From: Balanoglossus misakiensis
Taxonomy: Eukaryota > Animalia > Hemichordata
Assembly: GCA_040954595.2 (NCBI GenBank)
Contig: CM082598.2
Location: 2,232,001-2,296,000, forward strand
DNA length: 64,000 bases
Reading direction: 5' to 3'
The stretch's first letter is position 1; every line of letters starts with the position of its first letter. A program made the translations under genes and the position numbers. Of this stretch, positions 495-46,787 are shown in pieces. A model generated the notes under the pieces. That model was not told where the DNA came from. It did not search any database and saw only the letters and a list, made by a program, of their open reading frames with translations.

Positions 495-2597
495 CCAACC
501 AGCAGGACTTATTTCATGGCCAGCTCTACCACTACTGAACTGCTCAATGATGTTTCATGTATAAGAACAAAGTGATATAGATCAGATGATGTTTCAATAC
601 CTTGTAGACAAACAGGACAACATCCTCCAAGTTCAGACACAGGATTGGAACACAAGGCTGGTGGACAGGCAACTTGTTGGCAGTTGACATCACCACTCTG
701 GTCAAATATAACAGAGACAGAAATGACTATGAATGTTTGAAATGAATGTTCTTAGGTCAGTGAGTATAGATCACTTTGCATTCACAGAATAGAGGTCCAA
801 CCTTACCACAGAAAACAAAGGGTTTATACTGAAACATGGTGTTGAAAGGGTTAAAAAGTAACTTACCAGACACTGGCAGATATAACATGGCTGCCTAGGA
901 TCTTCAAATTGTTCCCCATCTCTGTATCTTTCTCCAATGAACTCACACTCTGTGTACAAGAAATAAAACCCACTCAAATGAGACAATATATTAAAACATA
1001 TAACTCTCTGGATATAAGAAATAACACTGGCTCAAAATATGTCTACAATGAAGAAAAAATCATGAGCACTGGTAAGCTAGAAAACACCAAAAGTACATAC
1101 ATGTACCGGTACATGGACCAGGTACTGACTTGTCTCTTATTTCTACGGCCAGTGGCAATTTCAACTGTTACTGAATGTCTGACATTTCGAAACATCATTA
1201 GCTGACTAGAGGCAATTGTCTTTTTAACCCTTTCACCACCATTTCAGTCCAAACCCGTTGTTTTCTATGGTAAGGTTGCACCTAGGGGTGAAGAGGTTAA
1301 GGTGTGGAGACAGTTCAACTTACCTTCACAGGTTGGGCATCCACACTGATCAACGGCTGGGTTGTTACAACTTGGGACACGACACGTCTGTCTGATACAA
1401 TCTACATTACCATCCTGTGAGAAATACATTTCAGTTAGAACACAGATTTTTACAACCCAATCAAACCGTTACATTCCACATAATGGATGAGCATGCATAC
1501 ACACAAACAAGTTAAGGCAACAAGAGAATTCATATTTGTCCTCAAATTTCCAAGATAGCTACTTCAGTTTGGGAAGTCTTAATGTTTATTTATGTACAGG
1601 ACATTACAACAAAACTATTTGCTGACTTTCAACGGTTACAGTGAATACATGTACTCACAAGACATCGGCATAGTCTACATTGGTTAGTTGGATCAGGAAA
1701 CATTTCTGAACTTCGGAATGTTCTGCCATCGTAAAGACAATCTGCAAATGATACATCAGAGTGAGTGAGAATTTTTTCACATCAGTTATGGCTTTCCATG
1801 AACTTGCTCTTCTCGTGTTGTGTGTTGATATGTATGATGTATAAATGTTCACTTCGACTGCCTTCAGGATTATTCACAAAGGTCCAAATTTAAATTCTGT
1901 CTCTGACCATTTCAAAAATCACTTCAATCAATGTTACTTGGCACATGTATCAAGAGAATCTCATGCACTAACCTGTACATTCCGGACAGCACTGGCCCTG
2001 TACTGGATGAGAACATGATATTCTCGGACATTCCCTGTTGACGCAATCCCACTCTCCACTGACGCATGTGCATTCCTGGCATGGATCTGGATTCAACACT
2101 GGAAGACATTCATCTGGAAGAAAATGTACACAACACATAAATTCTAGGAATCCTCAACTCAACACTATCACAAACAGTTGGGTCTCCCAGCCCTTAGGTG
2201 GATATTGGTTATGAAATTACAAATCAAATCACATTTTACAGGATTCAAACCCAAGTATACCTACCAACAGTTTTTACCCCCCCCCCCCCTCCCCATTTCC
2301 CTGTACAGCGGTTCAACTTCACCATTGAAAACTATGGATTTGGGCTAATCCATGGTGATGAAAGGGTTAAGACAGCTATGAATATCACAGACTCACCTGG
2401 ACATTCTGGACAACATTCTCCAAGTTTTCTAACCGGATTGGCACAGGTGACAGGTGGGCACGGTACGTGGGCACAGCCAACACTTCCATCCTGTCAAATT
2501 AAACGGCAATATATTTTCACATACACAACATCAAACTCTCTATCTCTCTATCTATCTATCTATCTATCTATCTTTTATCTATCTGTCTGTCTATCTG

Positions 2598-2639
<42 letters not shown>

Positions 2640-2640
2640 C

Positions 2641-2696
<56 letters not shown>

Positions 2697-16700: not shown

Positions 16701-19700
16701 ACCCCATTCACTTCCAAAATATGCAGAACTTACCATCTTGACTGTAACCATATCTGTTATATCCCAATCTGTCATAGCCAGCCCTGTTATAACCATGTTC
16801 ATCAAACCCATCAAACGAATACACATTTCTGTCATCAAGCTCTCCTCTGAGATCATATCCCTGCATATCATATCCAAATCTGTAAACAGATACAGAGCAT
16901 GTATATGAAGATATAAGACTTAAAAATTACGATCGAACTTATTGTTTTATAGCCAAATCTGTGAATTAAAACCTAGCGATTGTACCCCAACAACAATATT
17001 AAATGCCAGTGAAAACTAATGCTTTTACAGTATACAATATATCCATACATATTCTTACCCGTCATAGCCTTGTCTGTTAAATCCCTGCATATCAAAACCT
17101 TGGTGATCATACCCATCTTCACCGAACACAAATGCGGTGCCGTTGCATGGATCGCCGAAACTTGGCAGAATATACGTGACACACAGCTGCTGTTCCAAGT
17201 TGAAGACGTCTTCCGGGCGAATGTTAAACGGGACCATCGGTATGGACTTCATGAAGTCAGGGAAGTTCTGGAGGTTGCCGTTCTTATTCTGCCATCGCCA
17301 GTAGAGCATGTCGATGTAAGAGTGGAGAGCGAAAAATAACGGATCGTACGTACTGCCCGACGTTGCCATGTCACCGCCCACAAATTCATGGAAATACGAA
17401 ACGTACAACTGCAAGCATCGGCTCATCTCGTTGAAATCGTCGCTGCTGAGAGCAACGTAAAAGTCGACCATCGACGGAAGCTGTATGTTCGGATTCAGAT
17501 TCCGTCTCAGACACGGCTTCCAGGGTTCAGCTCCTTGGAACGGGAAATCCGGAACGCATCCACCGCGCCCGTCGCCGCCGAAATAATTCGCCTGCCAAAT
17601 AACGGCGTCAGACATATTCCCGACGTCGGTCGTGAAGTCGAAGTACGGTAGAGTGACAGCACAGTCGATCTCCTGCAGTTGTTGCTCGACTCGTCTGAGG
17701 AAGATTCGATGCCAGGGCAGATACATGGGACCGTTTGCGTGCATCACGTGACGCATGTACAGATTGTGCAACTCTTCCCACAGGTTTCCATAGTGACTGC
17801 TCTGCAGTTTCCGGACAGCCGACTGGAATCGTTCGATTTCCACTCTGGTCATGTCGCGAATCTCCTTCCTCACGGTCAGAGTGTCGCACCTGAAATGAAA
17901 TCCATTTCACAAATTAAAACATGACCACTGCATCAGGAATTACACATTATTATTGCATACTTACCAGCAGTGTGCCCTCAAAGCCCATGCACCACTGACT
18001 CAACAAACTCACTGATGACTCACGAAAATCATCCACAATACATGCAGAGGTACAGGGCTGACTCAATGAAATTTCTAGAAATCTTCAAAGTTACTCAAAG
18101 CTTATCAAAATTATGTTTGTTAGAGGGCACACTGCAAAAGTTACCAGTACACCTTACATCTCTGTATTTGGTTTAACCCCTTTGTTTAAAATAGGAAGAC
18201 CAGACATACTTACTAGAAATGAGGATGCAAGCTATACATGCTCACACACGCAGGAAATAAACATTTTTTGCCTCCATCTCCTATGCACTATTACACATCT
18301 TAAATACAGTAGCCGTCTGATCTCACTAGCCAATACAAAACAATACAACGCAAGCTCTTCTACACTTACCGACACACTATGTTGCCATCAGCTTGGCATG
18401 TACATTCCTGACAATTAGTTCGAAATCTGTCTCCCGCTCGATAGATCTGACTTCCAAAGATACATCCGGAGGGCAACCCACACACTCCGTCTCGACATCC
18501 CTGTCCCGGAAGGAAAGATACCACTTCCTGTCTCTTATCCGTAGTCTCTGTAATTTCCATCAGTCTCTTGCATTCGTGTATGCTCTGGATCTGTGCAGTT
18601 TCACCGAAAAAAGAAAAGTCATTGTCAATGATGCAGTCATAGGTAATCATGAGGGAATAATAGATGCACAGACAGACAGAGACAAATCTATTGGGCCCCA
18701 TGGACTTCATCCCCAGAGACTAAAACGACTGATTTTTTAAATACAAATAAAAGAAAGGAATAATATGCCAACATATGATAAAAACATTATTTCCAGTTGA
18801 ACATTATTTCTTGTGCTAATTTAAAAATAAACATGACAATAATAAGTGGACTATTTCGACCGACTGACTTGACACTGAAGACTTTGTCTGCGCAGTGCCC
18901 AGCTACGTGAACCAAAATTCACACAAGATGAGGAAAAAAATCTTTATAATTTACCTCACATTTGAATCCAGGTTCAAGCACTCTGAATGACAAGAAAGTC
19001 AGACCAGGACTTGTTCTTGTGTACGTACGCTGACAACATGCACCGATTACACACTTTTCTTCACAGCGTCTCTTAGACTCAAAATTATTATCATTTCCTC
19101 CACATCCTGAAAAGAGAAACATCCATAAGTGAAAACGTCAAAACAGAAATTGTTGCATAAAATTAATGGTTTCAGTTTTACCAAACTGAAAGCCCCAATT
19201 CTAGTTTCATACAAAGCTTGACTTGTATTACTTAAAGGGACAAAGTCTCTCTCTCGCTACCCTTTTCCCATTAATTATGTTTGATACAAGACACCATTTA
19301 TGTTAAGGTACCCTTGTATATGTAGTGAATGAACGCTCAACCACACACAACTTCCATCTCTGTTATAGACACGAGAGTGCAAAAACTCGCCAAAATGAAT
19401 AATCGTTCTTTACCATTTATTCATTTTGGGCGAGTTTTTACTCTCATATCATACAAGTGGGATGGATGTTGTGTATGGTTGAACGTTGATTCACTATATA
19501 TCCACCTGTAGAATAACATAAACGGTGTGTTGTATCAAATATAATTAATGGAAAAGGGGCAGCGAGAGAGAGACTTTGTCCCTTTAAGTTGGCTAGCAAC
19601 CTTTGGTACAGTATTTGACAAAGTTTCGTGAGATATCACAATGAGAGGAAAGTCATCTATTAGCCATTACCTGAAAACAGGAACTGTTCACATCTCTGTG

Positions 19701-22700
19701 TGTACGGATTGTAGTGGTGTCTCTGAAGGGATTCCCCACACGTACCAAACTCCGCCGGCTGGGTACATACATTCACGTTTGCCTCACAGTTCGGACCTTC
19801 CTGACCATCTGGACAGATGCAGGTGAAGTTATTATATCCGGGATATCCGACACATCTGGCGTTGGACGGACAGGGGTTGGATACGCACGGATCTAGGCAT
19901 TCCGGTCTGTCTTGGTAAATCTGGCATTTGGCAACACCGGACTGGGAAAAAAAACACAATGAAAGAAGTATAAGTGTCAAATATACACAATGATTTCTTT
20001 TTGAAATGATGGATGTTTTTCGGAAGTTCAGAGTGCAATAAAAGAAGTGTGGATCTGAACAATGCAATGATGATAAGAGTAATGTGTTCATTTATGAATG
20101 AATGAATGAATGAATGAATGAATGAATGAATGAATGAATGAATGAATGAATGAATGAAGTTTAAATTTGTCACTACCTGACAGACACATCTCCTACACGG
20201 ATCCACTTCCCAGCTTTCCTCATCTTTGTAGTCTTTTCCATTGTATTCACACACTTCCAGACGTACACACTCGCATCCTTCCAGGTAGCTAACTTTGCGA
20301 TCCATCTCAGCCATCTACAACAAAACAAAGCAAGGGTCAGAAACGTCAGTTCTTGTAAAATGTGTGGTACAGCTTGTTTACCCAACAGCAGGTGACTTCA
20401 CAATGATGACAAGGTTGGTACATTTAAAACCAAAACATACAAAGTTTTGCTGAAAAAATGAACAACTTCACCTACCTGTACTTTCATCATGTTCATCATG
20501 TTTGTCAGCTGGGAAACCATGTCCTCCAAAAGTACCACTCTCTGGGCGTCAGTGTTATCGGGAGCATCTGACTGTGGCAACTCTGTAAATACACAGAATT
20601 TGTTCAAAAGCTGTTAGTTGTATACACTCATTGAAAATCTATGCGCTATGTTCACTGTACAGAACTTCACATATTTATTTTCTTTCACTGCTCGCCACTC
20701 AACTTTCCAATATACGTGTAATATGCCGGCCAATTGTGAAATTCTCTCGGTGTTTGTTTTGCGTGCATTCCCACACAAACAATAAATACACACAGAGTTC
20801 TGTGAATGAAGAGTCTGTGTGTTTTTCATCTAAGCAGCGAGGCCACCCACTTCGGCTGAGCTGTCGCTTTTCTGCGTACACTCCCGATACGGATGACTGG
20901 TTTTCAAAAGTCCTGCCAACTACTTAACAAGGGGCTTAGTATTATTGCAAATTGCTGACAACCACTTTAGGGTCAATTTATCCTGCCCTGGTTTCAAATT
21001 TTGCTGAGTCGAACACTGGATGAAATCACAACCATTCAGCACTGGTTTCAAATACTGATTAAAGTCCAACAGAAGTCCACCAGTCCAGTCTCTATAGTGT
21101 GGGGTTTCCGGTGGTGGGTTTGTTCGTGTTCTTAACAATGCTGACCAGTTTCAGAAAATTGGCCACCCATGATTATCACCAGACGGTTGACTCACATCCC
21201 CACACTGTCTAAACCAGACACCAAGGGACTGAGAATACTGTTCAGAGTGCAGAGGTGGCCAGTTTTAGAGACTGGAGGTGCTTAGTATAGACAGGTTTCC
21301 AGATTAGTTGTTCGGTTTAGACAGGTTTTACTGTACATCTACACAGTAAAACACCCATTGCGAATCTCGCCATCAAAATCAGACATACAGACACAGGTAC
21401 AATAGACAGGCTTCCCAAACAAAAGTGGTAAACACTGGGCTAACCCATTCTTAATTCATTGTTAGCTAATATCAGAAAATAACTCTTGATCAGTAAAGTA
21501 CAGCGAGTGGGGAATACATCCTTGCCATTGTAACTTCATACATCCAGAGTTCTGGTGTGACGACCTTGTCTGTTAAGATACTCATGGTTGTCAAGGAGAC
21601 ACCTGGCTATCATCAGACAGCAAGTCCAGGATAACAGACACTGTTTACATCAGCTCTGTCCTGGTAACTCTATGACACTGCACTGCAACTACTATAACTT
21701 TTCCCACATTCTTTCTCAAATGTTGTCATCAAATTGGAAAGAATTGATGCACAAGGGTAGACGACTGTTGCGAAAATCAACCAGATTTACACTGTATGTC
21801 TCACAGATCAACTGATGTGACAGATTTTAAAAATTCACCCATGATGATTTGGCAGAAAAACAACAAGTGCACCGTTCCACTTCAATGAAATCTACATCAG
21901 GTGCCTGCACTCATACGTATACATAATATACACAAAAGCACTCGACTATGAACTGTTTATTTACAAATCCATGTTTCAGTGAGGCTTTGTTGTACACCCA
22001 TGATAAACCACAAATTAAAATCCCTGATCCGTGTCCAGTCGAGCTTGCATGTCTGACCGGAGACACAGATCAGATGATAAATTACAAAGAGCATGAAATT
22101 AACTAGACTTTAGTAAGATTTAGTCTTCTCATGAGTAGTCTAGTATCTAGCCGTGTTTTGTTCGCTTAGCTTCCAAAACTAGTTTTCGGAAGCAAAGCAC
22201 ATGAGCAAAGCACAAATCACAGAAAGCTCATACAAGTGCCATCTACCACAGATAGGTAGCAAATCTTTAGACTTAACTAAAACTACCAGAATCGAGAAAT
22301 CGCTATCAATCTCACCTTGGATGTTACCCTTGGACGTAACTTGATGGCCGGTTTCTGCAACCTCCTGCTGGGGAACTAACGTGGCTTGGCCTTCGAGTTC
22401 AACACTCTCATCTTCTGTAATTAAATCCAAAAAGATTTTTGAGATTGAATTTCACTGTTGAGATATCTCCACCTTGAAGTGGAATCACGCAAAATACAGC
22501 AATGCCAACAAGTGTTAGGGTATCTTGACTCTATGAGGAATGTTAATGCACACTTCGATACGAACATGAAATTTGTCTCTTTCGATCCAGACAATTAAGC
22601 GGAGAGTCGCTTGAACCTCAAGTCTATTATTGTCATCTTCATGACAGCATATTTTAGTGCATCACAGTTTGTTAAGGACAGATAATACACATGTACGACC

Positions 22701-25700
22701 GAATAGCACGCTGATTTCAAATTTTTCGATGCGATGTACATAAATTTACATGTCAACCATGCCAACCAGAGTTTAACAATATAGACGCCAGTCTGTCTTT
22801 GTTTATACCAAACATGCTCACACTGCTGAACTTTCAAAGTTAATGACGGTTGAATCATATACTGACTATACACAGCAAACTCTGTGTGATGACACAGTAT
22901 TTCTGTCTTTAGTAAGATGCTTGGAAACATCTGTTGCGAATCAGAAGTAACAATTAGAAGTTAACATCAGCTCTCTCTCTCTGTTTCAGGTCGGTTTAAT
23001 ATCTTTAACAAGGTCAAAGTGCAAAGGTGGTGGAGGTTAATAGCTGGTCTGCCCAGCACAGAAAATCCAGGGATCCTTTTTGTGATGACAAACTGCAGGT
23101 ACAGTATCTGATGATGATACACTCCTATACAGATCAAGTGGTCTTTTCCAATAAGCTAACGCTTGGCTAGCAATTGGCCCACTTTTGGCCAATTGTCCAT
23201 TTTATCAGAAGCCTAATTTAGCCTATGCGGTTCTATGTCAACGGGATGGGGGAAAGGTGTTCGGTATAGACAGGTTTCCCGATTAGACAGGGTTCGGTTT
23301 AGACAGGTTTTACTGTATGTCAAATAAAGATTTTCTGAACCATTGAACGCAAGATTTTACGGGCTGACTGAAATCAAGTCACCTAGACATTCTGTAAGTT
23401 GTTAACCCTGGACTACCTAATGGTTCCTGCAATCCATGGTTGTACAATTAAATTAGATTATGGGCAGATCAGATGACAAACAAGGGAATTCCTTCAAGGC
23501 ATATATGTACCATGCTGTGTTTCCTTGAGGCAACAGTCATGTATCTAACATCCTACAGCATACAGACTTCCAGAACAGATCTACTTCACTGATAGATACA
23601 GTGAAGACTACAGCAAAGTTTCCAACTGGGTTAGTTCTACGCTAACCCAAGGCCGGGTTCCCATATTATGCAATTAACAATTTATACAGTACAGTTTCAT
23701 TAAGAGTAGAAGTCAACCGGTTATAAACTGCAACAGTGTGTACCCTCAAATCTACCCTATCAACATACAATAATGAAATACTGAGAAGACGCGTTTGAAA
23801 TCTACGCCAATGTTCTGCTGCCGTGCTTTGTCTACATTGTAAGACTTCTCCATGTACAACGGAATGATAGAAACAGCTGGACATATACAAAGAAAAGCTG
23901 GTTCTCATTACAAGTAGAGTAATACAGCTACTTTTGAAATGTTATATTACCCTAGACCCCATTGATGCACAGCATTACCATACCTCATACACAAGGGGCA
24001 AGGCCAGCCAAAGTCTACTATCTAGCTGTATTCTGTCTGCTTCTTAATTTCAGAAGCAAAGTGGATAAAACACGGATAGGTGATAGACTATGCCAACCAG
24101 GACACTAAGGAAGATATTTATTTCAAAACAGTCAATTAACCATCCTTATGGCGGCATCAAAATACAATGAGATGGGTACCATATTCAGTTAAACAGATCT
24201 CAACTTTTGAGGTCAAACGTGACAGCAGTCCTGATCTTTTTTACTGCCTTTTGGTTATTTGAAGTTTGTCTTCCCAAAAAAAAAGAAAGATCACGGAATA
24301 CAAACTATAAAGAAAGAAGTGTCAACCAACAGTAAACATACTTGATTTACAAATGGATAGATTTCAACCGTACAACACTTTCTTCTCATCCAAAAATCCT
24401 ACAGAATTCATGAATTGGAAATGTTCAACAAGTATTTCTGCACTAAGTCATAATGAAGAGATCCATTGCTTGTGAAACATTCTTAACCATGGCAACAGGA
24501 CATCTGCTTATACAATTTTTATAAGTTCACATCTGCAAAAACACTCCAGGGATGTGCAGTTTCCCACAAGAACTTGACAGAGAATGGTACACATGTCCGT
24601 TCACGTACACAGCAAATGAGTATACCATGACGGTCAAGTTCATAAACTAATCCACATGCAAGGGTCCCCTTTGTATCATTCAATGCCGGAACTGTACGCC
24701 AGGCACTCCGGAAATATCCCTATTTAAGTTTCCGGGCACACACCGGAGAAATATGAGGCCAGTTAGTCCTGTAACTAAAGCTGGCACCATATGGAGCGGG
24801 TATGGAACGGCCAGACTTGCTGACACAGGAGTCAAACCAGACTTATATATTGTTTTCGGAAATGTGACAACTTAACAAAGCAAACTTGACCTCACCAGGG
24901 GACTTAAATACTTGTATGGAAAATGCACAATGTCCAACACAGAATGGAGTTTCTGCAAGGAACTTCGCTTGGTCTATGTCCAGACTCTAGCTCTCTCATC
25001 AGAACAGTGCCCTGAATGAACTTTTATCCGAATACCCTGGGCACGCCACTGGACTCATGCAAGAAACCACAACTTCACTTGTGGGCTGACTGGCTACATC
25101 GTCATAAACCGTTATTTTTGAGTGGAAGTTTCCAAGACAATGTTTCTGCGTGGCTACTCAGAGCCAAGAAAACACAGGATAGATTCCAGACGACAAACGA
25201 ACTTTAAACAGTGTGTCTCTTCGGCCACTTTTATAGATTGCTTACTAACCTCAGTGCATTTCCTAAACCAAATTTAGGTCAAACAGTCACTAAAAGATTC
25301 ACTCCTAAATGATGTTTGCATGAGATGGTCGCTGACTAAATGTCTCGGGGGCAGGAGGCCATTTTCCCGGCTATCAGGCAACTGACAAAAGTCACCTTCA
25401 ATTTGATTTAAAATGCATCACACCAAATCTAATATAAACAGACCTAGCCCAAATTTTATCATCACCACCACCACCACCAACACTATCACTATCACTATCA
25501 TCATCATCATCATCACCACTACCATCATCTTCATCAATGAAGCCTTAATTTTTTCATATTCTTTTGATAACTGGGCTCTGCAAATCTGTAGAAACCAGTG
25601 TAAAGAATCACTGGACTACAATTACACAAGACAGATTCTAGGCAGCCAAACCATGACATCTGACATGCCTGTAGCATTTTCACATGAATTACGCTCTAAC

Positions 25701-28700
25701 CCAGTAAACTGAACTGACTTGATGACATTTCTTATCAACAAACTCAAGACACACTAGATCCACTTCTGAAAGGTTAGCCAAGTTTATCTACACTAGTCTG
25801 CAAATTACAAATTAAGAGGGTTTTACCCTTTTTTTATCTTATCTTCAGTAAACTAACAAGGATATTCTGCCCTTATTGATTGCATCATCTAGAAAGAACA
25901 CTTGATGTATTACAGCAGTTCTAATACAGCTGATTCGTATGCGCACCCCACCGGGAATCAGTTCCAAAAAATGATGCCCGCTCACTTCATGTTCTTATGC
26001 ATGGCTACGGATGAGGTGTGTTACAAAACACATGTTGACTGGCTTTTTTGGGCAATAGCATACGTCTTTCACCTCTCAGGACTGTGAGTCACACCCCCCC
26101 CCCCCCAAAAAAAAGACTGTTTCGCTCGGCCTTCGGCCTCGGGAAACAGTCTGTTTTTGGGGGTGACTCACAATCCCTCGGGGTGGTAACAGATGTATGC
26201 TGTTGCCCTCATGGCCAGTCAATATGTGTATATACTATACTGTGTGCAACCATTGGTTCATTACTGAACAGATGACTAGCTCATGAATAAATAGTGAGGT
26301 ACTCACCCTGACTTTGTTGACAGGACCACGGTACTTGAGCCAGAGCCTCTGGATAGATCCATGCTTCTTGTAACCATCCCTAGAAACCACAGAAAGAGAA
26401 TGCAGAGTTTTAAATCAACTGTCACTAAAATCTGAATGCATAATGCATAAGACTTAATAGGGAAAACCACTTTCATTTACACATTGTTTATTCAGTTTAA
26501 AAACCCGGACAATTAGGATTATACTCTTTCATGGCTTAATGGAAACTAAGTGAGATTAAGTGTGAAATCACAAAGTGGGGTTTGTTGATGTTTCCACACC
26601 ATTTCATGGGCACTAATTAACCTGAACAAGCAGAGACACCTTTGGCAATGCAACAAGTGATGCTAAATAAAAGGGATAAATATTTTGCTAGTGAAAACAA
26701 ACAGGTACAGTTAATCCTCTGTAATACACATTGACATTTGTCTTTTTCAAAATGAATTTAAACGCTGTCACTTTGATTCAGCATCATGCTTTTATAGCCT
26801 TTTATAGTCAAACCTGTGTTAGTGGCCACCTCTATATAATGAAAACCTGTCTATAACGACCACTTTGTGTACAGTGACTGTGCCAATTACATGTACAGTC
26901 AAACCACTGGCCACTATAGAAAGGTTTGACTGTACATTAATTGACCTATCTATAAAGACCACCTGTCTATAAAGGCCAGTTTAGGAAAGTCCCTTGACTG
27001 GCTGTTATAGACAGGTTCTTAGTGTATAAACTAAAATTCCTTTTTAATCAAATTCTTACACACACTTACCGTAAATCGATCCTTTCCTTGCGGAGTCTGA
27101 CCAAGATATATCCTTGTATCTTCGGGAAAGTTCAGCTCAATTTTCCTTGGCAGTTTCTCTTCCAGATTGATATCACAATCAGAATAAAGTTTCACTCGAT
27201 CACCTTCAACAACCAGCAAAGTTCTTGTCCATTTTCGGTGATTGATTGTCGGAACTTCAAACACTGTTTCACGAATTTCAAACGATTCCTGTGACCGATA
27301 CTGCAGAATCAGCTTTTTCTGAGGTATGTCCGACACCAATGAGAATAATAATTCCGAGTTATTTCCGGACAAAATATGTAATAGTGACCCGACAGAACTT
27401 TTGGATTGCTTCGCGTGGTAGTATAACGACAAAGCTCCATCTGTGACATCATCCCCGAACTCTCCGACCTCTGACCCGGGCAGGGTTATGACATTTGCAT
27501 ATGACCTGAAGCGCCACACATCAGAATGTTCATCTTTGCCCTGAGTTTTTGTGATTCCCTTGATTGTCTGATCCGATTTCAAAGACTGCAGCAAGTCCAG
27601 TCCTGCAATCAAATAAAATTAGAGAAAGTTTATTCAACTGGCCAAGTCGCACATAAATTCCCCTTCCCAAACTTTATGAAACAATTGAAATGTTACTTTT
27701 GACCAATCACAAACTGATGTTTAGGATGCCACTTTTGATTGGTTGAAAGTGGTCACCTGACCCATCAAATAACTTGACACAATTACAATTTACACAATCA
27801 AAGTATCCAATGGAGTTTTGTCATTTGGAATGTTCGGGTGGTCATCAACTGATCATCAAATAATCTCTCAGAGATTAGTGAAATACTTTATAGCACCACT
27901 AGCACAAGTAACTTTTAATAGTCAAGCTGAATTGTCACTTTTACAAGTTGTTTTTAAAAAGACCTTCAACTTGGCTGAAGTCAGAGTTCTGATGTCCAAC
28001 GTCATCCAAAATTCCAAGATTAAGGAGAATCTTAAGTGGTCCACGTACATGTACTTGAACTTGGTCAAAAATGTCTTTAGTAGGTACACATAAGCAGTAT
28101 TACAAACAATTAGTGAAAAATACATTTCATAAAGATTGACATTATACATTAGTACCGGGAGCAAAATCACTTTCCCACTACTTTCAGGATGAATTTAATG
28201 TTACTATGATTTTCAAGGACTTTCTATGAGTACTAAAAGTAATTTTAAATGTCAAAACTTTCTACTTTACAAAGCGTTAACTGCTTAGTCTCATCATGGG
28301 TGGCACCACCCATGTACATTTCAAAATCTGTTTCAAAGTTTTCAAGTTTCAAATTGCAGTCACCTGAAATTTACATATGCCCATATATAATGTTCTATAG
28401 ACGCTCTTTTTTTTCAAGTGGGCACCCACTGAAAATCTATGATTGGCCAGATCTATAGTTTCCATGGTAACTATAGGTAAATCTCCATTCGAATAAATGC
28501 GTAGAAAATGTACACTTGCAACATACACAGTACTGCTGTCTATGTTGGCAATTAAACGTGCCAAGTCTGTCAAATGGACTGTGACCCTGGCAAACGGCGA
28601 TCCTTCAAAATCTGATTGAATGAAAGTATTTTGTTTACGCTTCATTATAGTGGCACAGCGACACAAAAGCACCGGGGGAAATCTCTGTTCTGACGGACAA

Positions 28701-34276: not shown

Positions 34277-37200
34277 ATGTCAAACATAAATCCATTTCTT
34301 GGTCTGATCCAAGACATACATTCGAAAACGGATAGCACAGAAGACAGCCAGGTAAAGGCATTACTGCATGACAATCAAATTCCAAAGAGAGAACGTGAAT
34401 CTCTAAAAGACATATCAGCAGTGCTTCTGAAGCTGAAAGAGCGGGGCCTTATATCAGAAGATGATGTTGGTCTCCTAAAGGATCTGTTCGGGACGATTAG
34501 ACGTCACGATCTTGTGAAGTTGGTAGAAAAATATGAAGAAGACCGCCGTAAAACTTTACAAGGAGCTAGAAATGAGGAGGATCAGGAGACAGGTACAGGT
34601 AGGTACATGAATTATCAATATATGATATTCTACTCAACATTGATATTGGTCAGAAGAAAATATAAAGAAATATCACTACACCCACTATTGGCAGTCATTG
34701 AAAAATCAGTACAGCAAATTGTTAAAAATTTGAAAACTTTCAAGTAGAAAAAAATCATGAGACAGTCACGGGATTCATCATCATGTGATTCTGGTGCATT
34801 GTATGTAAATTAAGTGACTGTTGGTGTGACAAAGGTTATGTACACTCTGATGATGTGATATCAGCACAAATGCATATAGATAGCAAATTAGAGATACTAA
34901 AGGAAATGTAAAAATTTTCTACAAAACATTTATTTACTTAAAACAGTGTTTGAAATTCAGGTTAGGTATTGAGTTTTTCATTACAGCAGCAATATTTGGT
35001 AATGCTTTTTTTGGACAAGTTACGCAATGTGAAAATAACTGTTTATTTTGTACAAAAATACCAGTAGCTACAGACAATATTGTGAGTTTCCCATTGTTTC
35101 TCAATTATTAAAACTAACCAAAAACCACATCAGATCTTTAAAGGAAATGTTGCCTAAATGTTTCTATATACCCATGTCATCTATACCTTAGTATTTTAAC
35201 ATGAATTAGGCTCATAGAATATCAAACAGAGTGTAACATAACTATTAAATTCATTCAAAGGATTACCAAGAACTCTCAATAAAATGCACAACAATTAATG
35301 CAATTAACATACTCCCCCACTTGACTTTAATGACAAACAGCTAAAAATTGCAAATAGTTTTAAGGCATGTCTAACAAGAGTTATTTTCCCAGCATAACTG
35401 AATACTAGTACTACACTGATAATTGAGGAGAAACTTTTTTCTTTTGCTGCCAATTTTGGCAAGGGACCAAAATATTCATTAAAAACAATCCAGGGCTCTC
35501 TGAATTTGCATTAATAAATGCCCTTTCTGCCGTCACTCTAGGTGTTCGTACTGCTGCCAGCTTGTCAACAAATGAAGCGGTTATAAGTTTATCACCTTCT
35601 GGCATTTCAGGTAAGATTTTTCGAGATCCCTGATATTATACAAGGCGATTGTAATTAAGTAAATATGGACTGTTTCAATTTCATGATGGGGTTACACGCA
35701 TTTCTGTCAATATATGCTTGTGTCTGTGCACAAATAGTTCAAGCTTTGGCGACAAAAAAAGATTGCCAGTATCTTTGATTCAGATGATCCATGGCATCTA
35801 CATGTGTTCCGGTATGAAGACACTTAATACAACATGAACATACAGTTGCCTCTTTTGATATTGTGAAAATTTCATGTCGCGAAAATTACCCGTTTTACAG
35901 TATTTAAACAACGGCAATTGCACTGAAGTAATGTTCTAATTATTCTTGTCATATTCTTACCCTAGGCACCACTACTACTAAGAGTTTTGTTATAAACCTA
36001 AACATGACAGAGTCATCATCAGGTGCCATGTTATCAGTTCCTGACAGTGCAGGTAAATATATCCGGGAGGAACTAGCCATTAAACCATTATGAAAACTAT
36101 TGTACAGAAATTGTTTATGTTGTAATTCTGTAAGTTTAAATTAAAGATGCCCATGTGTTTCCCCTTTCAGAAACCCAAAGTGTGACAATTAGGGCTTGTT
36201 CTGCACAGCAACAGGTTGCCATTGAGAATCAAGATTTACTTAGTAAGTACATTACAAGATGTGTAGTACATGTACATGTACAAATGAATGAAACTTTACT
36301 TGTAAAATTGTAACTATTAAAATTTTGTGGTAAATTATGTTGCCAATGTTATTGTTCAATACAAATGAAAATTAGTAGCTGTGGGTGACTTTTGCATATT
36401 TTATATCAGGCCTTCTTCTTAAACTAATTTTAATAATGTGATAAATTCACAGATTGGCAAAAACTCCTAGCTGACAGATATAAAGAGTATGCAGAATTCC
36501 TTCCGCTGCCTTGGTGGGATGGTACAGAGACATTCACGATGGAAGATGTCTATGTTGATTTGGAACTACAAACAACTGGGAAACAAAGAACACCAATATC
36601 CAGAGAGCAGATGTTTGCTGATGAAAAATCTCCAATACTAATAGAAGGTGACCCTGGGTATGGCAAAACTACTTTCTGTAAAAAGATAGCGTATGATTGG
36701 GCAAAGGTTAAACCAGAATTTCTAAGTAATTTCAAGTTATTGTTTTTTTTGGAGTTAAAAGAGATACACTCCTATCACAAGGAAAAGAATAATAGATCCA
36801 TTAGGTTTGAAGATGTACTTTCTGATTTGGTCTTTAAACATCGGGTAAATACAGGTGATTTGGGGAACTTTATCAACGATAATCAGTCACAGATATGTTT
36901 AATCTTTGATGGTCTAGACGAACTTTCAGTGGATGATTTTCCTGATTATTTTAAAGATATATTGAAAGGCAATACATTGAAAGATTGCACTGTCATTGTC
37001 ACCTCACGAAAAATTCGTGAAAAAAATCCCAACCAGAGATACAATAAACAAATTGTTATAAAAGACTTTGACGAAAACAATGTTGAGAAAATTATAGAAA
37101 AACATTTTTCAGCAGCATGTGAATTTTTGGAGGATACTAGACAAATGTATGATTCATGCAAACATCAGTTACTTGAAGAAATGCGAACTGGTAGGACAAA

Positions 37201-40200
37201 TTTAATGAACTTAATGAAAGGCCCTCTGTATGTCATTTTGGTATGTGATATTTGCATTCAATCCAACAAGTTACCTAAAACCATGACTGAACTGTATCAA
37301 CAGATTGTTGACTACGTGATGGAAAGGTACTGTTTAAAATATGAGGTAGATAACAGTTTAGTTCAGGACGATTTACTTTACCTAAGTGAAGTTGCATACA
37401 AGTCGCTCAAGGAAAGGAGTTATGAAATGCATTTCAGTGATGAAGATAAAGAACGTAACCAACGTCTGCATAAGTTGGGTTTCTTGACGATAATTCCACA
37501 GCGTGTAAAGTCATCTGCTCATCACAGATACATGTTTCATCATCAAACGTTTTATGAATTTTTTGCGGCAAAGTACATTGCTAATCTTTGCCGAAAGGAA
37601 CCAGATAAGTTTGCCGACATTGTATCAAGCTGCTTCTTATTCACCAGAGCAGATTTCTTTGAAGAAAGTAATGTTCCTAGATTTACAGCAGGTATTTTAA
37701 AAGACAATGTGAGTGAAATGTTTACTATCTTGAAAAGACGTGGGAAAGTATTTAATGTTTCATTAGAAGAAGCACTTAGGGAAGGGGAATTTTTTTCAGA
37801 AGTGTTATTAATGAAGCCAAGCGGATTGTATCAAGAAGCAGATCTATTATATGAAAGTGGGTGTACCAATAAGTCAGCAATAGATAGCTGTGCGCAAATA
37901 TTAACCAACATAAAGATTGACTTATTGGAAAGTGATAGGGGTACTGGGATAGAGCACCACAAACGCATACTGGAATCGCACAATCTAAGTACAGAAGCAA
38001 CAATCTGGGTATTTTGTAGTATCACTAAATTTTCATATGAAGTAATGTATGACACATTGAAGTCTGCCAGAAACAGAGGAACAGTTGTGCTGGTCATAGA
38101 CTGTGAATTTGAAAGTCATGTTGTTCAACTGCGAAACCTCACAAATGTACTTCCTGGAACGATTACCGTATTCAATAATGTGCTGTGTGAGAAATCCAGT
38201 ACTGATGAGTTTAGTGAAGTTCTCAAGACTTGTCATTCACTACGAGGGGTGTCTGTCGATTTTTATGATACCAGCAGAACCTGGATGATGTCAGTATCAA
38301 TTACAAAACTGAATAAGGTTGGTTCAAGATCTGACAGAATGTCAAATATGGAAATGACTGTCGCATTTGATCCCAGCAGACAAGTCGTAGGAGACGATAT
38401 CACGAATACACTCTCACTTCTCGCAAGAAGTATACATATCAAAAAGTTAACAGTCATTTGCACATCCAGTATCTCTGCGGATGATGGATTAGACAACAAG
38501 ACTGACAAAATGGGCCAAGCTGTTTGTAATATTGTATCTGTGGTTAAACCTAAAACAGTTGCCATTTTGGGATTACCTATGGGTTCTTTAGAATATCTGC
38601 GGAAAGCATCTGCACAAATTATTGAATGCAAGGAAATACGTTCAGCTAATGAAGTGGAAATTACTTATTTGGATAGGGAGGTACGTCAGTTTAAGGCCAC
38701 ACAACTTGATATAACAGCTACATTTGGAAAGTTCACTACCTCTTTCAAAATAAACCATATGGATTTTACATTAGGCGATCTGTGTCAGTTACTATCCGAG
38801 ACTCATTCGCTTGAAAAAGGAGACATTTATTTTGATATTCTAATTGATTCCAGTTTCAAAAATGAAAACACAGATTCTGACATCCAGCATATGCTTGACA
38901 GGATGACATCAGTGAGTATTGACGAACTGAGGCTCAGCATTTCCAACAGCTCTCACACGGGTAGTATTGATTTTCTTATAGAAAGGGTGTTAGAGAGGCT
39001 GTTAAATGTTACCATAAAAGTTCTTATAATTGAAGGTGTATCTTTTGGTAGCATAGGTGAGATTAGGCATATACACACACAAGTCTTTAAACACCAGGTA
39101 ATGGCAAAAGTCAATGAAATTAAGCTTGTCTATGTTGAAGAGGGGATTGCTAAATTGAAAGAAGTTAACATTAAATATAAGGCCAAACGTGCAAAGCGCC
39201 AATCAAACAGATTGCTGCAAGGCATGCAGTCTTCAAATACTGCATGTATATTAGAGAACGATCAGTGTGAAAGTGCTGATAAAAATCTTTCAGTTAACTC
39301 ATACATTGAAAAACTGAAAAGTATATGTTATTTTACCAATTTTGATGTTGACTTGCGTGACCTTTTTGACTTTCTGTTAGAAGTACATCCTGGTTGTAAA
39401 GATGCACCAACTTTTGGTATTTCGATAAAGTGTGATTTTGAAAACACTGAAATTGATAGCCTAATCAACAAGACGCTTGCTAGGATAGACTCAATCAATA
39501 TCAACCACATCGAATTGAAATGTTCCAATGTAACTGACTCACTTGATAATTCTTCTAGACTAGTTAAAGTTGCTGAGACTTTGTCTCTGATATCTTATAC
39601 ACAACTAATTATTAGAGGATTAACTCATGGTCAATTCAAGATGTTCAATAATATGTTAAGACTACTGAAACAGCAAGCCTTGCGGTCACTCAATAGAATA
39701 TACATATACCTTTTAGAGGATTATCAATATAAAGTGAATAATGTAAATTTTATAGTTACATCAGTGTATGAGAACCTGACCATAACATATTGTTTTATAA
39801 GTATGGATGTTGACTTATGTGACCTTTTTGACTTTCTGTCAGAAGTACATCCTGGTTGTAAAGATGCACCAACTTTTAATATGTCGATAAAGTGTGATTT
39901 TGACAACACTGAAATTGATAGCCTAATCAACAAGATGCTTGCTAGGATGGACTCAATCAATATCAACTGCATCGAATTGAAATGTTCCAATGTAACTGAC
40001 TCACTTGATAATTCTTCTAGACTAGTTAAAGTTGCTGAGACTTTGTCGCTGATATATTATACACACCTAGCTATTGGAGGATTAAATCATGGTCAATTGA
40101 AGATCATCCATAATATGCTTAAACAACTTACAAAGCAAGTCTTGCAGTCACCAAACAGAACATACATTACCCTTTTAGAGGACAATGAGTGTCAATGGAA

Positions 40201-43200
40201 TGATGCAAATCTCATAGTCAAATCAAACCACAAGAATCTGACAGTAGGAATTAGTTTTACGAGTATGGATGTTGACTTGCGTGACCTTTTTGACTTTCTG
40301 TCAGAAGTATATCATGGTTGTAAAGATGCACCAACTTTTGATATTGAGATAAAGTGTGATTTTGACAACACTGAAATTGATAGCCTAATCAACAAGATGC
40401 TTGCTAGGATGGAGTCAATCAATATTGAGGAGATCGAATTGAAATGTTCCAATTTAACTGACTCACTTGATAATTCTTCTAGACTAGTTAAAGTTGCTGA
40501 GGCTTTGTCCCTGATATCTTATACACGACTAATTATTAGAGGATTAACTAAAGAAAATTTGCAGATCATCCATAATATGCTTAAACAACTTAAAAATCAA
40601 GTCTTGCAGTCACCAAACAGAACATACATATACCTTTTAGAGGACAATAAGTGTCAAGGGTATGATGCAAATCTCAGAGTCAAATCAAACCACAAGAACC
40701 TGACCGTAAGACTTTGTTTTACGAGTATGGATGTTGACTTGCGTGAAATTTTTGACTTTCTGTCAGAAGTACATCCTGGTTGTAAAGCTGCACCAACTTT
40801 TGATATTTCGATAAAGTGTGATTTTGACAACACTGAAATTGATAGCCTAATCAACAAGATGCTTGCTAGGATGGACTCAATCAATATCAACTGCATCGAA
40901 TTGAAATGTTCCAATGTAACTGACTCACTTGATAATTCTTCTAGACTAGTTAAAGTTGCTGAGGCTTTGTCCCTGATATCTTATACACGACTAATTATTA
41001 GAGGATTAACTAAAGAAAATTTGCAGATCATCCATAATATGCTTAAACAACTTAAAAATCAAGTCTTGCAGTCACCAAACAGAACATACATATACCTTTT
41101 AGAGGACAATAAGTGTCAATGGAATGATGCAAATCTCAGAGTCAAATCAAACCACAAGAACCTGACCGTAAGACTTTGTTTTACGAGTATGGATGTTGAC
41201 TTGCGTGAAATTTTTGACTTTCTGTCAGAAGTACATCCTGGTTGTAAAGCTGCACCAACTTTTGATATTTCGATAAAGTGTGATTTTGACAACACTGAAA
41301 TTGATAGCCTAATCAACAAGATGCTTGCTAGGATGGAGTCAATCAATATTGAGGAGATCGAATTGAAATGTTCCAATTTAACTGACTCACTTGATAATTC
41401 TTCTAGACTAGTTAAAGTTGCTGAGGCTTTGTCCCTGATATCTTATACACGACTAATTATTAGAGGATTAACTAAAGAAAATTTGCAGATCATCCATAAT
41501 ATGCTTAAACAACTTAAAAATCAAGTCTTGCAGTCACCAAACAGAACATACATATACCTTTTAGAGGACAATAAGTGTCAATGGAATGATGCAAATCTCA
41601 GAGTCAAATCAAACCACAAGAACCTGACCGTAAGACTTTGTTTTACGAGTATGGATGTTGACTTGCGTGACCTTTTTGACTTTCTGTCAGAAGTATATCA
41701 TGGTTGTAAAGCTGCACCAACTTTTGATATTTCGATAAAGTGTGATTTTGACAACACTGAAATTGATAGCCTAATCAACAAGATGCTTGCTAGGATGGAG
41801 TCAATCAATATTGAGGAGATCGAATTGAAATGTTCCAATTTAACTGACTCACTTGATAATTCTTCGAGACTAGTTAAAGTTGCTGAGGCTTTGTCCCTGA
41901 TATCTTATACACGACTAATTATTAGAGGATTAACTAAAGAAAATTTGCAGATCATCCATAATATGCTTAAACAACTTAAAAATCAAGTCTTGCAGTCACC
42001 AAACAGAACATACATATACCTTTTAGAGGACAATAAGTGTCAATGGAATGATGCAAATCTCAGAGTCAAATCAAACCACAAGAATCTGACAGTAGGAATT
42101 AGTTTTACGAGTATGGATGTTGACTTGCGTGACCTTTTTGACTTTCTGTCAGAAGTATATCATGGTTGTAAAGATGCACCAACTTTTGATATTGAGATAA
42201 AGTGTGATTTTGACAACACTGAAATTGATAGCCTAATCAACAAGATGCTTGCTAGGATGGAGTCAATCAATATTGAGGAGATCGAATTGAAATGTTCCAA
42301 TTTAACTGACTCACTTGATAATTCTTCGAGACTAGTTAAAGTTGCTGAGGCTTTGTCCCTGATATCTTATACACGACTAATTATTAGAGGATTAACTAAA
42401 GAAAATTTGCAGATCATCCATAATATGCTTAAACAACTTAAAAATCAAGTCTTGCAGTCACCAAACAGAACATACATATACCTTTTAGAGGACAATAAGT
42501 GTCAATGGAATGATGCAAATCTCAGAGTCAAATCAAACCACAAGAACCTGACCGTAAGACTTTGTTTTACGAGTATGGATGTTGACTTGCGTGAAATTTT
42601 TGACTTTCTGTCAGAAGTACATCCTGGTTGTAAAGCTGCACCAACTTTTGATATTTCGATAAAGTGTGATTTTGACAACACTGAAATTGATAGCCTAATC
42701 AACAAGATGCTTGCTAGGATGGAGTCAATCAATATTGAGGAGATCGAATTGAAATGTTCCAATTTAACTGACTCACTTGATAATTCTTCGAGACTAGTTA
42801 AAGTTGCTGAGGCTTTGTCCCTGATATCTTATACACGACTAATTATTAGAGGATTAACTAAAGAAAATTTGCAGATCATCCATAATATGCTTAAACAACT
42901 TAAAAATCAAGTCTTGCAGTCACCAAACAGAACATACATATACCTTTTAGAGGACAATAAGTGTCAATGGAATGATGCAAATCTCAGAGTCAAATCAAAC
43001 CACAAGAACCTGACCGTAAGACTTTGTTTTACGAGTATGGATGTTGACTTGCGTGACCTTTTTGACTTTCTGTCAGAAGTATATCATGGTTGTAAAGCTG
43101 CACCAACTTTTGATATTTCGATAAAGTGTGATTTTGACAACACTGAAATTGATAGCCTAATCAACAAGATGCTTGCTAGGATGGAGTCAATCAATATTGA

Positions 43201-45682
43201 GGAGATCGAATTGAAATGTTCCAATTTAACTGACTCACTTGATAATTCTTCGAGACTAGTTAAAGTTGCTGAGGCTTTGTCCCTGATATCTTATACACGA
43301 CTAATTATTAGAGGATTAACTAAAGAAAATTTGCAGATCATCCATAATATGCTTAAACAACTTAAAAATCAAGTCTTGCAGTCACCAAACAGAACATACA
43401 TATACCTTTTAGAGGACAATAAGTGTCAATGGAATGATGCAAATCTCAGAGTCAAATCAAACCACAAGAATCTGACAGTAGGAATTAGTTTTACGAGTAT
43501 GGATGTTGACTTGCGTGACCTTTTTGACTTTCTGTCAGAAGTATATCATGGTTGTAAAGATGCACCAACTTTTGATATTGAGATAAAGTGTGATTTTGAC
43601 AACACTGAAATTGATAGCCTAATCAACAAGATGCTTGCTAGGATGGAGTCAATCAATATTGAGGAGATCGAATTGAAATGTTCCAATTTAACTGACTCAC
43701 TTGATAATTCTTCGAGACTAGTTAAAGTTGCTGAGGCTTTGTCCCTGATATCTTATACACGACTAATTATTAGAGGATTAACTAAAGAAAATTTGCAGAT
43801 CATCCATAATATGCTTAAACAACTTAAAAATCAAGTCTTGCAGTCACCAAACAGAACATACATATACCTTTTAGAGGACAATAAGTGTCAATGGAATGAT
43901 GCAAATCTCAGAGTCAAATCAAACCACAAGAATCTGACAGTAGGAATTAGTTTTACGAGTATGGATGTTGACTTGCGTGACCTTTTTGACTTTCTGTCAG
44001 AAGTATATCATGGTTGTAAAGATGCACCAACTTTTGATATTGAGATAAAGTGTGATTTTGACAACACTGAAATTGATAGCCTAATCAACAAGATGCTTGC
44101 TAGGATGGAGTCAATCAATATTGAGGAGATCGAATTGAAATGTTCCAATGTAACTGACTCACTTGATAATTCTTCTAGACTAGTTAAAGTTGCTGAGGCT
44201 TTGTCCCTGATATCTTATACACGACTAATTATTAGAGGATTAACTAAAGAAAATTTGCAGATCATCCATAATATGCTTAAACAACTTAAAAATCAAGTCT
44301 TGCAGTCACCAAACAGAACATACATATACCTTTTAGAGGACAATAAGTGTCAATGGAATGATGCAAATCTCAGAGTCAAATCAAACCACAAGAACCTGAC
44401 CGTAATACTTTTTTTTACGAGTATGGATGTTGACTTGCGTGAAATTTTTGACTTTCTGTCAGAAGTACATCCTGGTTGTAAAGCTGCACCAACTTTTGAT
44501 ATTTCGATAAAGTGTGATTTTGACAACACTGAAATTGATAGCCTAATCAACAAGATGCTTGCTAGGATGGAGTCAATCAATATTGAGGAGATCGAATTGA
44601 AATGTTCCAATTTAACTGACTCACTTGATAATTCTTCTAGACTAGTTAAAGTTGCTGAGGCTTTGTCCCTGATATCTTATACACGACTAATTATTAGAGG
44701 ATTAACTAAAGAAAATTTGCAGATCATCCATAATATGCTTAAACAACTTAAAAATCAAGTCTTGCAGTCACCAAACAGAACATACATATACCTTTTAGAG
44801 GACAATAAGTGTCAATGGTATGATGCAAATCTCAGAGTCAAATCAAACCACAAGAACCTGACCGTAAGACTTTGTTTTACGAGTATGGATGTTGACTTGC
44901 GTGAAATTTTTGACTTTCTGTCAGAAGTACATCCTGGTTGTAAAGCTGCACCAACTTTTGATATTTCGATAAAGTGTGATTTTGACAACACTGAAATTGA
45001 TAGCCTAATCAACAAGATGCTTGCTAGGATGGAGTCAATCAATATTGAGGAGATCGAATTGAAATGTTCCAATTTAACTGACTCACTTGATAATTCTTCT
45101 AGACTAGTTAAAGTTGCTGAGGCTTTGTCCCTGATATCTTATACATACCTAGCTATTAGAGGATTAAATCATGGTCAATTGAAGATCATCCATAATATGC
45201 TTAAACAACTTAAAAATCAAGTCTTGCAGTCACCAAACAGAACATACATATACCTTTTAGAGGACAATGAGTGTCAATGGAATGATGCAAATCTCAGAGT
45301 CAAATCAAACCACAAGAACCTGACCGTAAGACTTTGTTTTACGAGTATGGATGTTGACTTGCGTGAAATTTTTGACTTTCTGTCAGAAGTACATCCTGGT
45401 TGTAAAGCTGCACCAACTTTTGATATTTCGATAAAGTGTGATTTTGACAACACTGAAATTGATAGCCTAATCAACAAGATGCTTGCTAGGATGGAGTCAA
45501 TCAATATTGAGGAGATCGAATTGAAATGTTCCAATGTAACTGACTCACTTGATAATTCTTCTAGACTAGTTAAAGTTGCTGAGGCTTTGTCCCCGATATC
45601 TTATACACGACTAATTATCAGAGGATTACCTGATGACAAATTAAAGGAAATCAATATGATGATAAAAGTTAAGAAAAAGTAA
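34277..45682 (+). CDS. DED-NACHT NLR-type protein with a C-terminal 154-aa tandem repeat array; exons 34277-34598, 35542-35610, 35966-36052, 36171-36242, 36453-45682 (~3259 aa)
   Basis: Exon 1 is DED-like (LLKLKERGLISEDDVGLLKDLFGTIRRHDL, with RxDL motif). The last exon has the pre-NACHT PLPW, Walker A GDPGYGKTT, Walker B LIFDGLDE, VIVTSR, GPLY and winged-helix FHHQTFYEFFAA. All four introns are GT-AG, phase 1. Confidence 0.9.
39344..45630 (+). repeat. Coding tandem repeat, 462-bp (154-aa) unit, 14 copies (last one partial)
   Basis: GATGTTGACTT recurs at 39344, 39806, 40268, 40730, 41192, 41654, 42116, 42578, 43040, 43502, 43964, 44426, 44888 and 45350, an exact 462-bp spacing with an open frame throughout. 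Confidence 0.98.
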
Positions 45683-46337
45683 ACCTTGCAGTCTCAAAAA
45701 GATAAATGTATAATACTTTGAGGGGAAGATGAGTATGAAATTTGTGATACAACTTTCAGAGTCAAATCACCACACAGATAACTTACAATGATATGTTATC
45801 TTGCAAATACTCTCAATGCACAGGGTCCTGGCAAAAATACAGCCGTTTTGAACTTTTGATGCTATAGAAAACACATCATGTTGATGTCTTAATTGTGCAA
45901 CCTATGTGACTTAACTATCAGAGGTAAACAAACTGGCAGCATTGCATGGCCAAACATTTTCCACTTAGTATATTGAATAGCAGTATAACACCTACCGGGT
46001 ATAAGAAATATGCACTGCCTATCTCTGACTTTTTTGCATGTTTTAGGGTTACTGTTAAAGTCGTTTTATAAGACGCACCTTTTATGAGTGACAGTGTGTG
46101 CCGAAAAGGGGGTGCGACTTATAATACCGATGTTCTGTTGTATCCATTTTCTGAAAATCTCCTCCCACACAAGTCATTCAAAGGGTGCGACTTATAAAAT
46201 GACTTTAAAATTGCCTCTCCAGTTAAGACTTGTTTAATAAGTAGAAACCAATATCTTATTGTGGTTACTGGATTTCATTACAGTTATATTTGTTACAAGT
46301 GAGTGATTCAACTAAACTTGTCTTATACATAGCAGTT

Positions 46338-46485
46338 AACATATCTCTTCTGAATTCAACCACCTACCGGTACTTCTAACTTATTTACTGGCTACTTTAG
46401 AGAGTTCCTTGCTATAGCAGGGAACTCTAAAGTAGCCAGTAAATAAGTTAGAAGTAGGTGGTTGAATCCAGAACAGATATGTGTT
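46338..46485. repeat. ~145-bp near-perfect palindrome downstream of the NLR stop codon
   Basis: TTCAACCACCTAC..TACTTCTAACTTATTTACTGGCTACTTTAGAG pairs with CTCTAAAGTAGCCAGTAAATAAGTTAGAAGTAGGTGGTTGAA around the centre GCTATAGC. Confidence 0.9.
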
Positions 46486-46787
46486 GGAGAGGAATTAAGG
46501 GAATGGCTAATAGAGGGTTACTTTTTGAGAAAAATGAAACATAGGTAATTATTTTTGCTGGCTACTTGGCTCGTCTACACCCTTGTTTGTCTGAGTATGC
46601 ATGTTAGTTTCCCAGTCATCCCCAGTGTTGTTTGATATGTAATTCTGCAAAACGGCCTTCAGATCAAAGTATTTTGTTGATGTGATTGGTGTGGTTAGTT
46701 GTGACTAAGTCTCACGCTGTGGTGATCATCATGCTGATGTCTGATGATTGTCACATCGTGAAACTCACAGGTCACAATCACACACAC

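Follow-up and report, generated by a model that had tools for sequence, protein, structure and literature searches.

The DNA considered here (the window) is a stretch of 64,000 nucleotides from the hemichordate Balanoglossus misakiensis (GenBank assembly GCA_040954595.2, contig CM082598.2, positions 2,232,001 to 2,296,000), and all coordinates below count from its first nucleotide. On its plus strand lies a gene that joins a death effector domain (DED) and a NACHT NTPase domain to a long, repetitive sensor region. It consists of a DED exon (34277–34592) and a 9.2-kb open exon (36453–45682) that encodes the NACHT domain and 14 gap-free units of 462 bp. An earlier note on this DNA had described the gene as a DED-NACHT member of the NOD-like receptors (NLRs), and this was confirmed by Pfam matches to DED (E 5.7e-16, within 34277–34591) and to NACHT (E 1.3e-20, residues 66–226 of the open reading frame (ORF), 36632–37114). 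The Walker A (GDPGYGKT) and Walker B (LIFDGLDE) motifs of the NACHT domain are both intact, and were found to be invariant or near-invariant across six hemichordate relatives. The reading frame at 36437–45682 runs for 3081 codons without a stop, whereas the remaining five frames across the array hold 51–340 stops each. These 3081 open codons, and the 0% indels reported by Tandem Repeats Finder (TRF), agree with the earlier description of an open 9.2-kb exon with 462-bp repeats free of indels and stops. Judged by its sequence, the gene is intact and belongs to a hemichordate-type family of DED-NACHT (NLR-type) genes.

The first exon carries the ATG and the DED and ends at a phase-1 GT donor, with an alternative donor 6 nt further on. 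That it is spliced to the NACHT exon is a prediction based on splice signals and on the architecture of the relatives. The splice signals point to a five-exon model of 3257 aa with three predicted phase-1 micro-exons in the linker, each with AG/GT ends and keeping the frame: a Ser/Thr-rich one of 69 nt (35542–35610), one of 87 nt (35966–36052) and one of 72 nt (36171–36242). Without them, the predicted protein is 3181 aa long. The coding part of the 9230-nt exon follows an AG acceptor and comprises the NACHT domain, the helical domains and the whole sensor region up to the stop codon. The region assigned to HD1, the winged helix and HD2 (37115–37876, boundaries inferred) aligns with the relatives, one of which, the database protein P0003, gave a weak Pfam NLRC4_HD2 match (E 8e-4). 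It is followed by a degenerate region recognized by its beta/alpha pattern (37877–38392), for which Pfam gave no match, by about 1.7 old, diverged unit copies (38393–39187) and by the young array (39227–45682). Pfam matches of the whole ORF to bPH_8, DUF5339, DUF4312 and cwf21 were rejected as summed weak repeat matches of which no single stretch passes. No second NLR piece was found by tblastn inside the window.

The six best relatives are DED-NACHT proteins from two acorn worms, Ptychodera flava and Glandiceps talaboti (E 3e-107 to 7e-47). In a tree of 29 NACHT regions, from which P0007 was dropped for short coverage, the gene falls in a clade of nine rows (98/96); seven of the other eight are from Ptychodera or Glandiceps, and the eighth is P0100. 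Four relatives, namely P0001 of Ptychodera flava (XP_070576686.1), Glandiceps talaboti XP_077991374.1, P0003 and P0004 (together P0001–P0004), are uncharacterized database models that share the DED-NACHT architecture and about 36–41% identity over the NACHT region, and none of the four has a Pfam match to leucine-rich repeats (LRRs). However, their units are few, old and diverged (at best 31% identical between copies), and none carries a young array.

TRF placed the array at 39344–45628 with a period of 462, 13.6 copies, 96% matches and 0% indels. With strand beta4 (39227) taken as the start, the array comprises 14 units of 462 bp (154 aa) and reaches the stop codon; the last unit is 149 aa long and ends on its final helix. 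The 14-copy array described earlier was upheld. Compared with a central unit, the units share 99–154 of 154 residues. The end units are the most diverged, being only 64–73% identical to the core, and the 13 full units amount to 11 distinct proteins, two pairs being identical. Identity at an offset of 154 residues reaches 100%, and 1576 windows of 100 aa attain 85%. The array is thereby a case of high internal conservation (HIC) as defined for more than 85% over at least 100 aa (PMC4986451). By TRF, alignment and AlphaFold, the predicted order of elements within a unit is beta4-beta5-beta6-alpha-beta1-alpha-beta2-alpha-beta3-alpha.

The earlier description was correct about the young array itself, but overlooked the approximately 1.7 older copies upstream of it. 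These copies (ORF residues 653–917) were recovered by hidden Markov model (HMM) profile, tblastn and alignment, are about 24–30% identical to the young units, and scored 71.6 bits with the young-unit profile, where 500 shuffles reached 8.3 at most. Nor is the unit confined to this gene, as P0001 carries about three copies with a period near 158 aa (E 1.8e-22). With a wider profile that included the P0001 copies, weak traces were detected in P0002–P0004 (E 5e-4 to 1e-3, 240 proteins), whereas the remaining 236 of the 240 fetched proteins gave no match below E 0.07. A word-based search with the sensor region alone gave no match among 7997 candidates of 30–1693 aa, but it also missed P0001 and is therefore insensitive; among longer proteins (2185–5000 aa, lengths of 1687–2184 being outside the range), none of its 15 matches carries the unit. 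Matches in a search of all representatives were mostly to NACHT among the best 150 of 3060, so that this search is no test of the unit alone. In the ESM Atlas every score was below 0.9, with nematode FTH/FBA_2 clusters at 0.76–0.77 as a lead only. By comparison of these sequences, the 154-residue unit predates the array. The older, diverged copies here and in P0001 suggest a recent amplification, within a single exon, of one block that a hemichordate sensor already possessed.

How do the units evolve? In the four-gamete test, 322 of 595 informative site pairs failed, with Rm at least 4, and an exact duplication of 1142 bp was found at a three-unit offset. The units are recombinant mosaics of variant blocks. 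Repeat shuffling and concerted evolution, a further mark of HIC repeats, were likewise seen, in the incompatible site pairs and the diverged end units. To locate the variation on the predicted sheet, strand positions were classed twice: by pattern, once the variation was known, and afterwards, independently of it, by the hydrophobicity of the old copies and of those in Ptychodera. With the independent classes, nonsynonymous differences per nonsynonymous site (Nd/N) in units 1–12 were 0.25 at exposed, 0.05 at buried and 0.09 at other positions, compared with a unit-wide synonymous rate of 0.10. The exposed value lies above the buried value (p 0.007), the value elsewhere (p 0.0006) and the synonymous rate (p 0.007). 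An enrichment of step counts on the exposed face was significant in units 1–12 and 0–12; in core units 2–11 the difference between exposed and buried positions was borderline (p 0.052). Overall, amino-acid changes were 2- to 5-fold enriched on the predicted exposed sheet face. These selection tests are counts made outside a recombination-aware model, on one full haplotype.

Reads from three runs of one sample, possibly the assembled one, were available as contigs that collapse the array, none of which spans it. They point to a second haplotype that differs strongly over a stretch of the sensor at 38873–39337, with 15 of 227 nt changed and about 42 nt replaced at 39219–39259. The differences listed for the old units and the linker region affect 23 codons, 21 of which change the amino acid; 10 of these 21 residue changes are at predicted exposed positions (p ~0.002, with approximate coverage bounds) and one is buried. 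In run X1, 36449–37118 and 37184–38599 are single contigs without differences, so that the NACHT region is invariant, and its depth there equals that of the flanks, which favors an allele over a paralogue. Those differences in run X2 that fall near GATC insertions and strand switches resemble ligation chimeras and were given no weight by themselves. Over beta4-beta6 of the first unit (39690–39790), one X1 contig departs from the window sequence for some 100 nt and then rejoins the array, possibly as another allele variant. Same-sample contigs also skip or replace intron sequence, 672 bp at 35762–36433 and 728 bp at 34811–35538. Since 35762–36433 holds two of the predicted phase-1 micro-exons (87 and 72 nt), the second haplotype may have a shorter in-frame linker between DED and NACHT.

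Taken together, the gene probably encodes a polymorphic sensor of non-self, with recombination among its units as the source of diversity on the exposed sheet face. Several observations weigh against this. Counted by variable codons, 10 of 31 exposed versus 2 of 17 buried is a trend only (p 0.11), and exposed codons also show somewhat more synonymous change (3 of 22 sites). Because the units recombine, sites are not independent. Unit-wide dN/dS is about 1.05–1.25 and not significantly above 1 (p 0.36–0.53), so that, taken over the whole unit, the data agree with relaxed selection. In the second haplotype, the table behind the 23 codons has six further rows, and the excess of nonsynonymous over synonymous change is borderline (p 0.06–0.15 for two or three synonymous among 27, and 0.30 for four).

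A near-neutral expansion is one alternative: an unstable coding variable-number tandem repeat would have grown by unequal crossover under relaxed selection, with no gain in sensing needed, in an allele that may have little function or be silent. The unit-wide dN/dS near 1 and the nonsignificant codon counts agree with it, as do the closest relatives, which make do with about one to three units, and the very young core, with its two identical pairs. However, 9.2 kb have been kept without a stop or frameshift, including end units that are only 64–73% identical to the core. Moreover, buried strand positions change least (Nd/N 0.03 in units 2–11 and 0.05 in units 1–12), multi-nucleotide codon swaps are mostly exposed (8 of 11 in units 1–12, with pattern-defined classes), and the second haplotype diverges in the sensor, not in the NACHT domain. 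Such an expansion is therefore considered unlikely, and a diversified sensor is the preferred reading.

The fold of the unit was examined with two AlphaFold models. The two-unit model (8-row alignment) reached a predicted local distance difference test score (pLDDT) of 86 and a predicted template-modeling score (pTM) of 0.82, and the three-unit single-sequence model a pLDDT of 73 and a pTM of 0.67, with the same elements. Both show six strands and four helices per unit, two of the strands being joined by a short turn, which agrees with the four beta-alpha segments plus two extra strands proposed in the earlier note. The LxxLxLxxN/C/T motif is absent from the unit, as that note had also claimed for a regular LxxLxLxxN, although three strands carry a minimal LxxLxL-type pattern. 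No Pfam LRR family matched the ORF or one or two units, and a PDB sequence search gave no match up to E 10. The best VIA-align rows were mostly LRR proteins of the ribonuclease inhibitor (RI) type, namely NLRP2 (Z 7.9), NLRP14 (7.8), NLRP3 (7.2) and RI itself (7.0). The predicted rungs of about 27–33 residues and the LxxLxL-like strands resemble those of RI-type LRRs (NLRP2, NLRP3, NLRC4, RI). Unlike these, the unit lacks the Asn ladder motif and has six strands per four helices, and root-mean-square deviations (rmsd) of mostly 6–9 Å suggest another curvature or twist. The unit can be read from the models as a beta/alpha solenoid of LRR-like kind into which a hairpin is inserted; its exposed faces and hairpin topology are putative. 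It is not a plain multiple of any known LRR class by Pfam, motif scan or structure comparison, and the earlier suggestion of a divergent LRR-like solenoid outside any named family stands.

Shared descent with LRRs is probable, though not proven. The structural comparisons speak less clearly for it, as all LRR alignments of the model had Z below 8 with rmsd mostly 6–9 Å, and Foldseek with the better (two-unit) model gave TM scores of at most 0.31, with APOBEC3G and TIM barrels on top; the top LRR rows reached TM 0.28–0.42 in a separate Foldseek search. The likeness to APOBEC3G was rejected, since the rmsd was about 14–16 Å and TM about 0.2, and the HxE...PCxxC pattern was not seen in the unit by eye. 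An hhalign comparison of A2 with P0002 and with the sea-star protein P0167 aligned the N-terminal overhang of P0001 alone and was uninformative.

Could the units instead be separate compact domains on a string, each a hairpin with three or four beta-alpha turns resembling STAS, which bind a repetitive ligand by avidity or serve as a repeated bait? Eight STAS/SpoIIAA-type chains fit the segment beta5-beta6-alpha-beta1-alpha-beta2-alpha-beta3 with an rmsd of 3.0–4.1 Å over 81–102 residues (Z 5.1–6.1), closer than the poor whole-model LRR fits. These alignments have 6–12% identity, with no Pfam STAS match, and a Z near 6 falls in the background range of beta/alpha folds. The pTM values for two and three units imply a defined packing between units, neither model shows a low-confidence linker segment, and LRR chains align over both units (model range about 7–308). 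A chain of independent domains thus appears quite improbable, and the continuous solenoid is retained.

Array length was assessed by dividing the depth of array contigs by their k-mer multiplicity in the window. Depth per copy was 42 and 59 in run X1, compared with about 45–53 in the flanks, and 118 in run X2, compared with about 110–121. This agreement argues against the assembly over-expansion considered in the earlier note and indicates that the copy number is roughly right, within the limits of one sample and of contigs that do not span the array. That the array length is spurious, the real gene having few units like its relatives, is very improbable, for although the runs come from one sample and no contig bridges the repeat, depth matches the flanks in two runs, 11 of the 13 full units are distinct proteins and the longest exact repeat is 1142 bp.

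The gene resembles Podospora HNWD (HET-E, HET-D, HET-R) and other fungal HIC NLRs in joining a NACHT domain to a sensor of near-identical repeats, in shuffling these repeats and, probably, in concentrating variation on the binding face (PMC4986451, PMC13449251). It differs in that the fungal proteins combine WD40, ANK, TPR or HEAT units with HET-type effectors, instead of a 154-aa beta/alpha unit with a DED. For the fungal genes, alleles are shown to vary in repeat number and positive selection is formally supported, whereas the present data comprise one full haplotype. The likeness to HET-E/HNWD drawn in the earlier note therefore stands for the mosaic units and the exposed-face variation, but near-identical repeats are not specific to fungi. 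HIC NLRs are also reported from animals in a published survey (PMC13449251), and 25 of the 240 fetched proteins pass the same measure (85% over 100 aa), 14 of them LRR-type by eye. Amphioxus, sea urchin and Nematostella also have DED-NACHT proteins, and for these a direct recruitment of caspases has been suggested (PMC2575513); effectors with a death fold occur widely among animal NLRs (PMC3879445).

Two animal proteins exemplify such near-identical LRR arrays. P0167 of Asterias rubens (XP_033646264.1), an NLR of 4261 aa, has 56-aa LRR pairs that are 85–92% identical over about 2,600 aa. Its residues ~1400–4000 hold about 45 near-identical pairs that vary at strand positions, a good HIC case itself. 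P0087, a NACHT protein, has a 266–270-aa LRR super-repeat with up to 97% identity between copies; at residues ~1200–3200, this super-repeat consists of LRRs plus a non-LRR insert. However, P0167 has recognizable LxxLxLxxN/C motifs and belongs to another NACHT clade, P0087 has recognizable LRRs (Pfam LRR_6), and the unit described here differs from both in having no LRR motif and an added hairpin. The HIC regime itself is thus neither new nor fungus-specific, and the sea-star array is even longer.

By analogy with known NLRs, the solenoid would keep the NACHT domain inactive until a ligand binds to the sheet face; once released, the NACHT domain would oligomerize, and the clustered DEDs may recruit a DED-bearing caspase or adaptor, which would agree with the caspase-8/FADD-type signaling proposed as a possibility in the earlier note. 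Unequal crossover and gene conversion would, on the model of the fungal HIC NLRs, homogenize the units and reshuffle variant strand residues into new alleles. A more far-reaching proposal is put forward tentatively, as a possibility that is doubtful at present: hemichordates would own an uncatalogued class of solenoid sensors built from a 154–158-aa six-strand module, in which an inserted hairpin alters LRR geometry so far that one chain can hold about 95 strands. The gene would then be a single-exon, recombination-driven, highly polymorphic receptor, an animal counterpart of the fungal het genes that could serve in allorecognition or parasite tracking.

Elsewhere in the window, a large multi-exon gene on the minus strand (12345–27618) encodes two tyrosinase domains (Pfam E 5e-28 and 6e-24). 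It also shows a weak VWC match, exons that look EGF-, Kunitz- and TSPN-like by eye, and many G[YF]DxxG repeats. Short high-copy interspersed elements, with a summed depth in the thousands, occur at 35842–35905 in an intron of the DED-NACHT gene and at ~46050–46500 downstream of its stop codon.

What is new here is an uncatalogued 154-aa module, its amplification within a single exon beside its own older copies, and allelic divergence restricted to the sensor. No paper on the unit or on hemichordate NLR sensors was found in a literature search that covered few subscription papers. The published HIC survey retained only ANK, TPR, WD40 and LRR proteins with units of 21–100 (PMC13449251), so that a class with a 154-aa unit would escape it. 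A confident model that has no close structural match makes the unit a candidate for a new repeat scaffold. Because old and new copies share one exon, the gene allows a direct view of how a sensor passes from low to high internal conservation. NLRs of invertebrate deuterostomes are often annotated without a recognizable sensor. The young array makes one such sensor readable, and the unit that it defines accounts for a C-terminus left unannotated in at least one Ptychodera protein.

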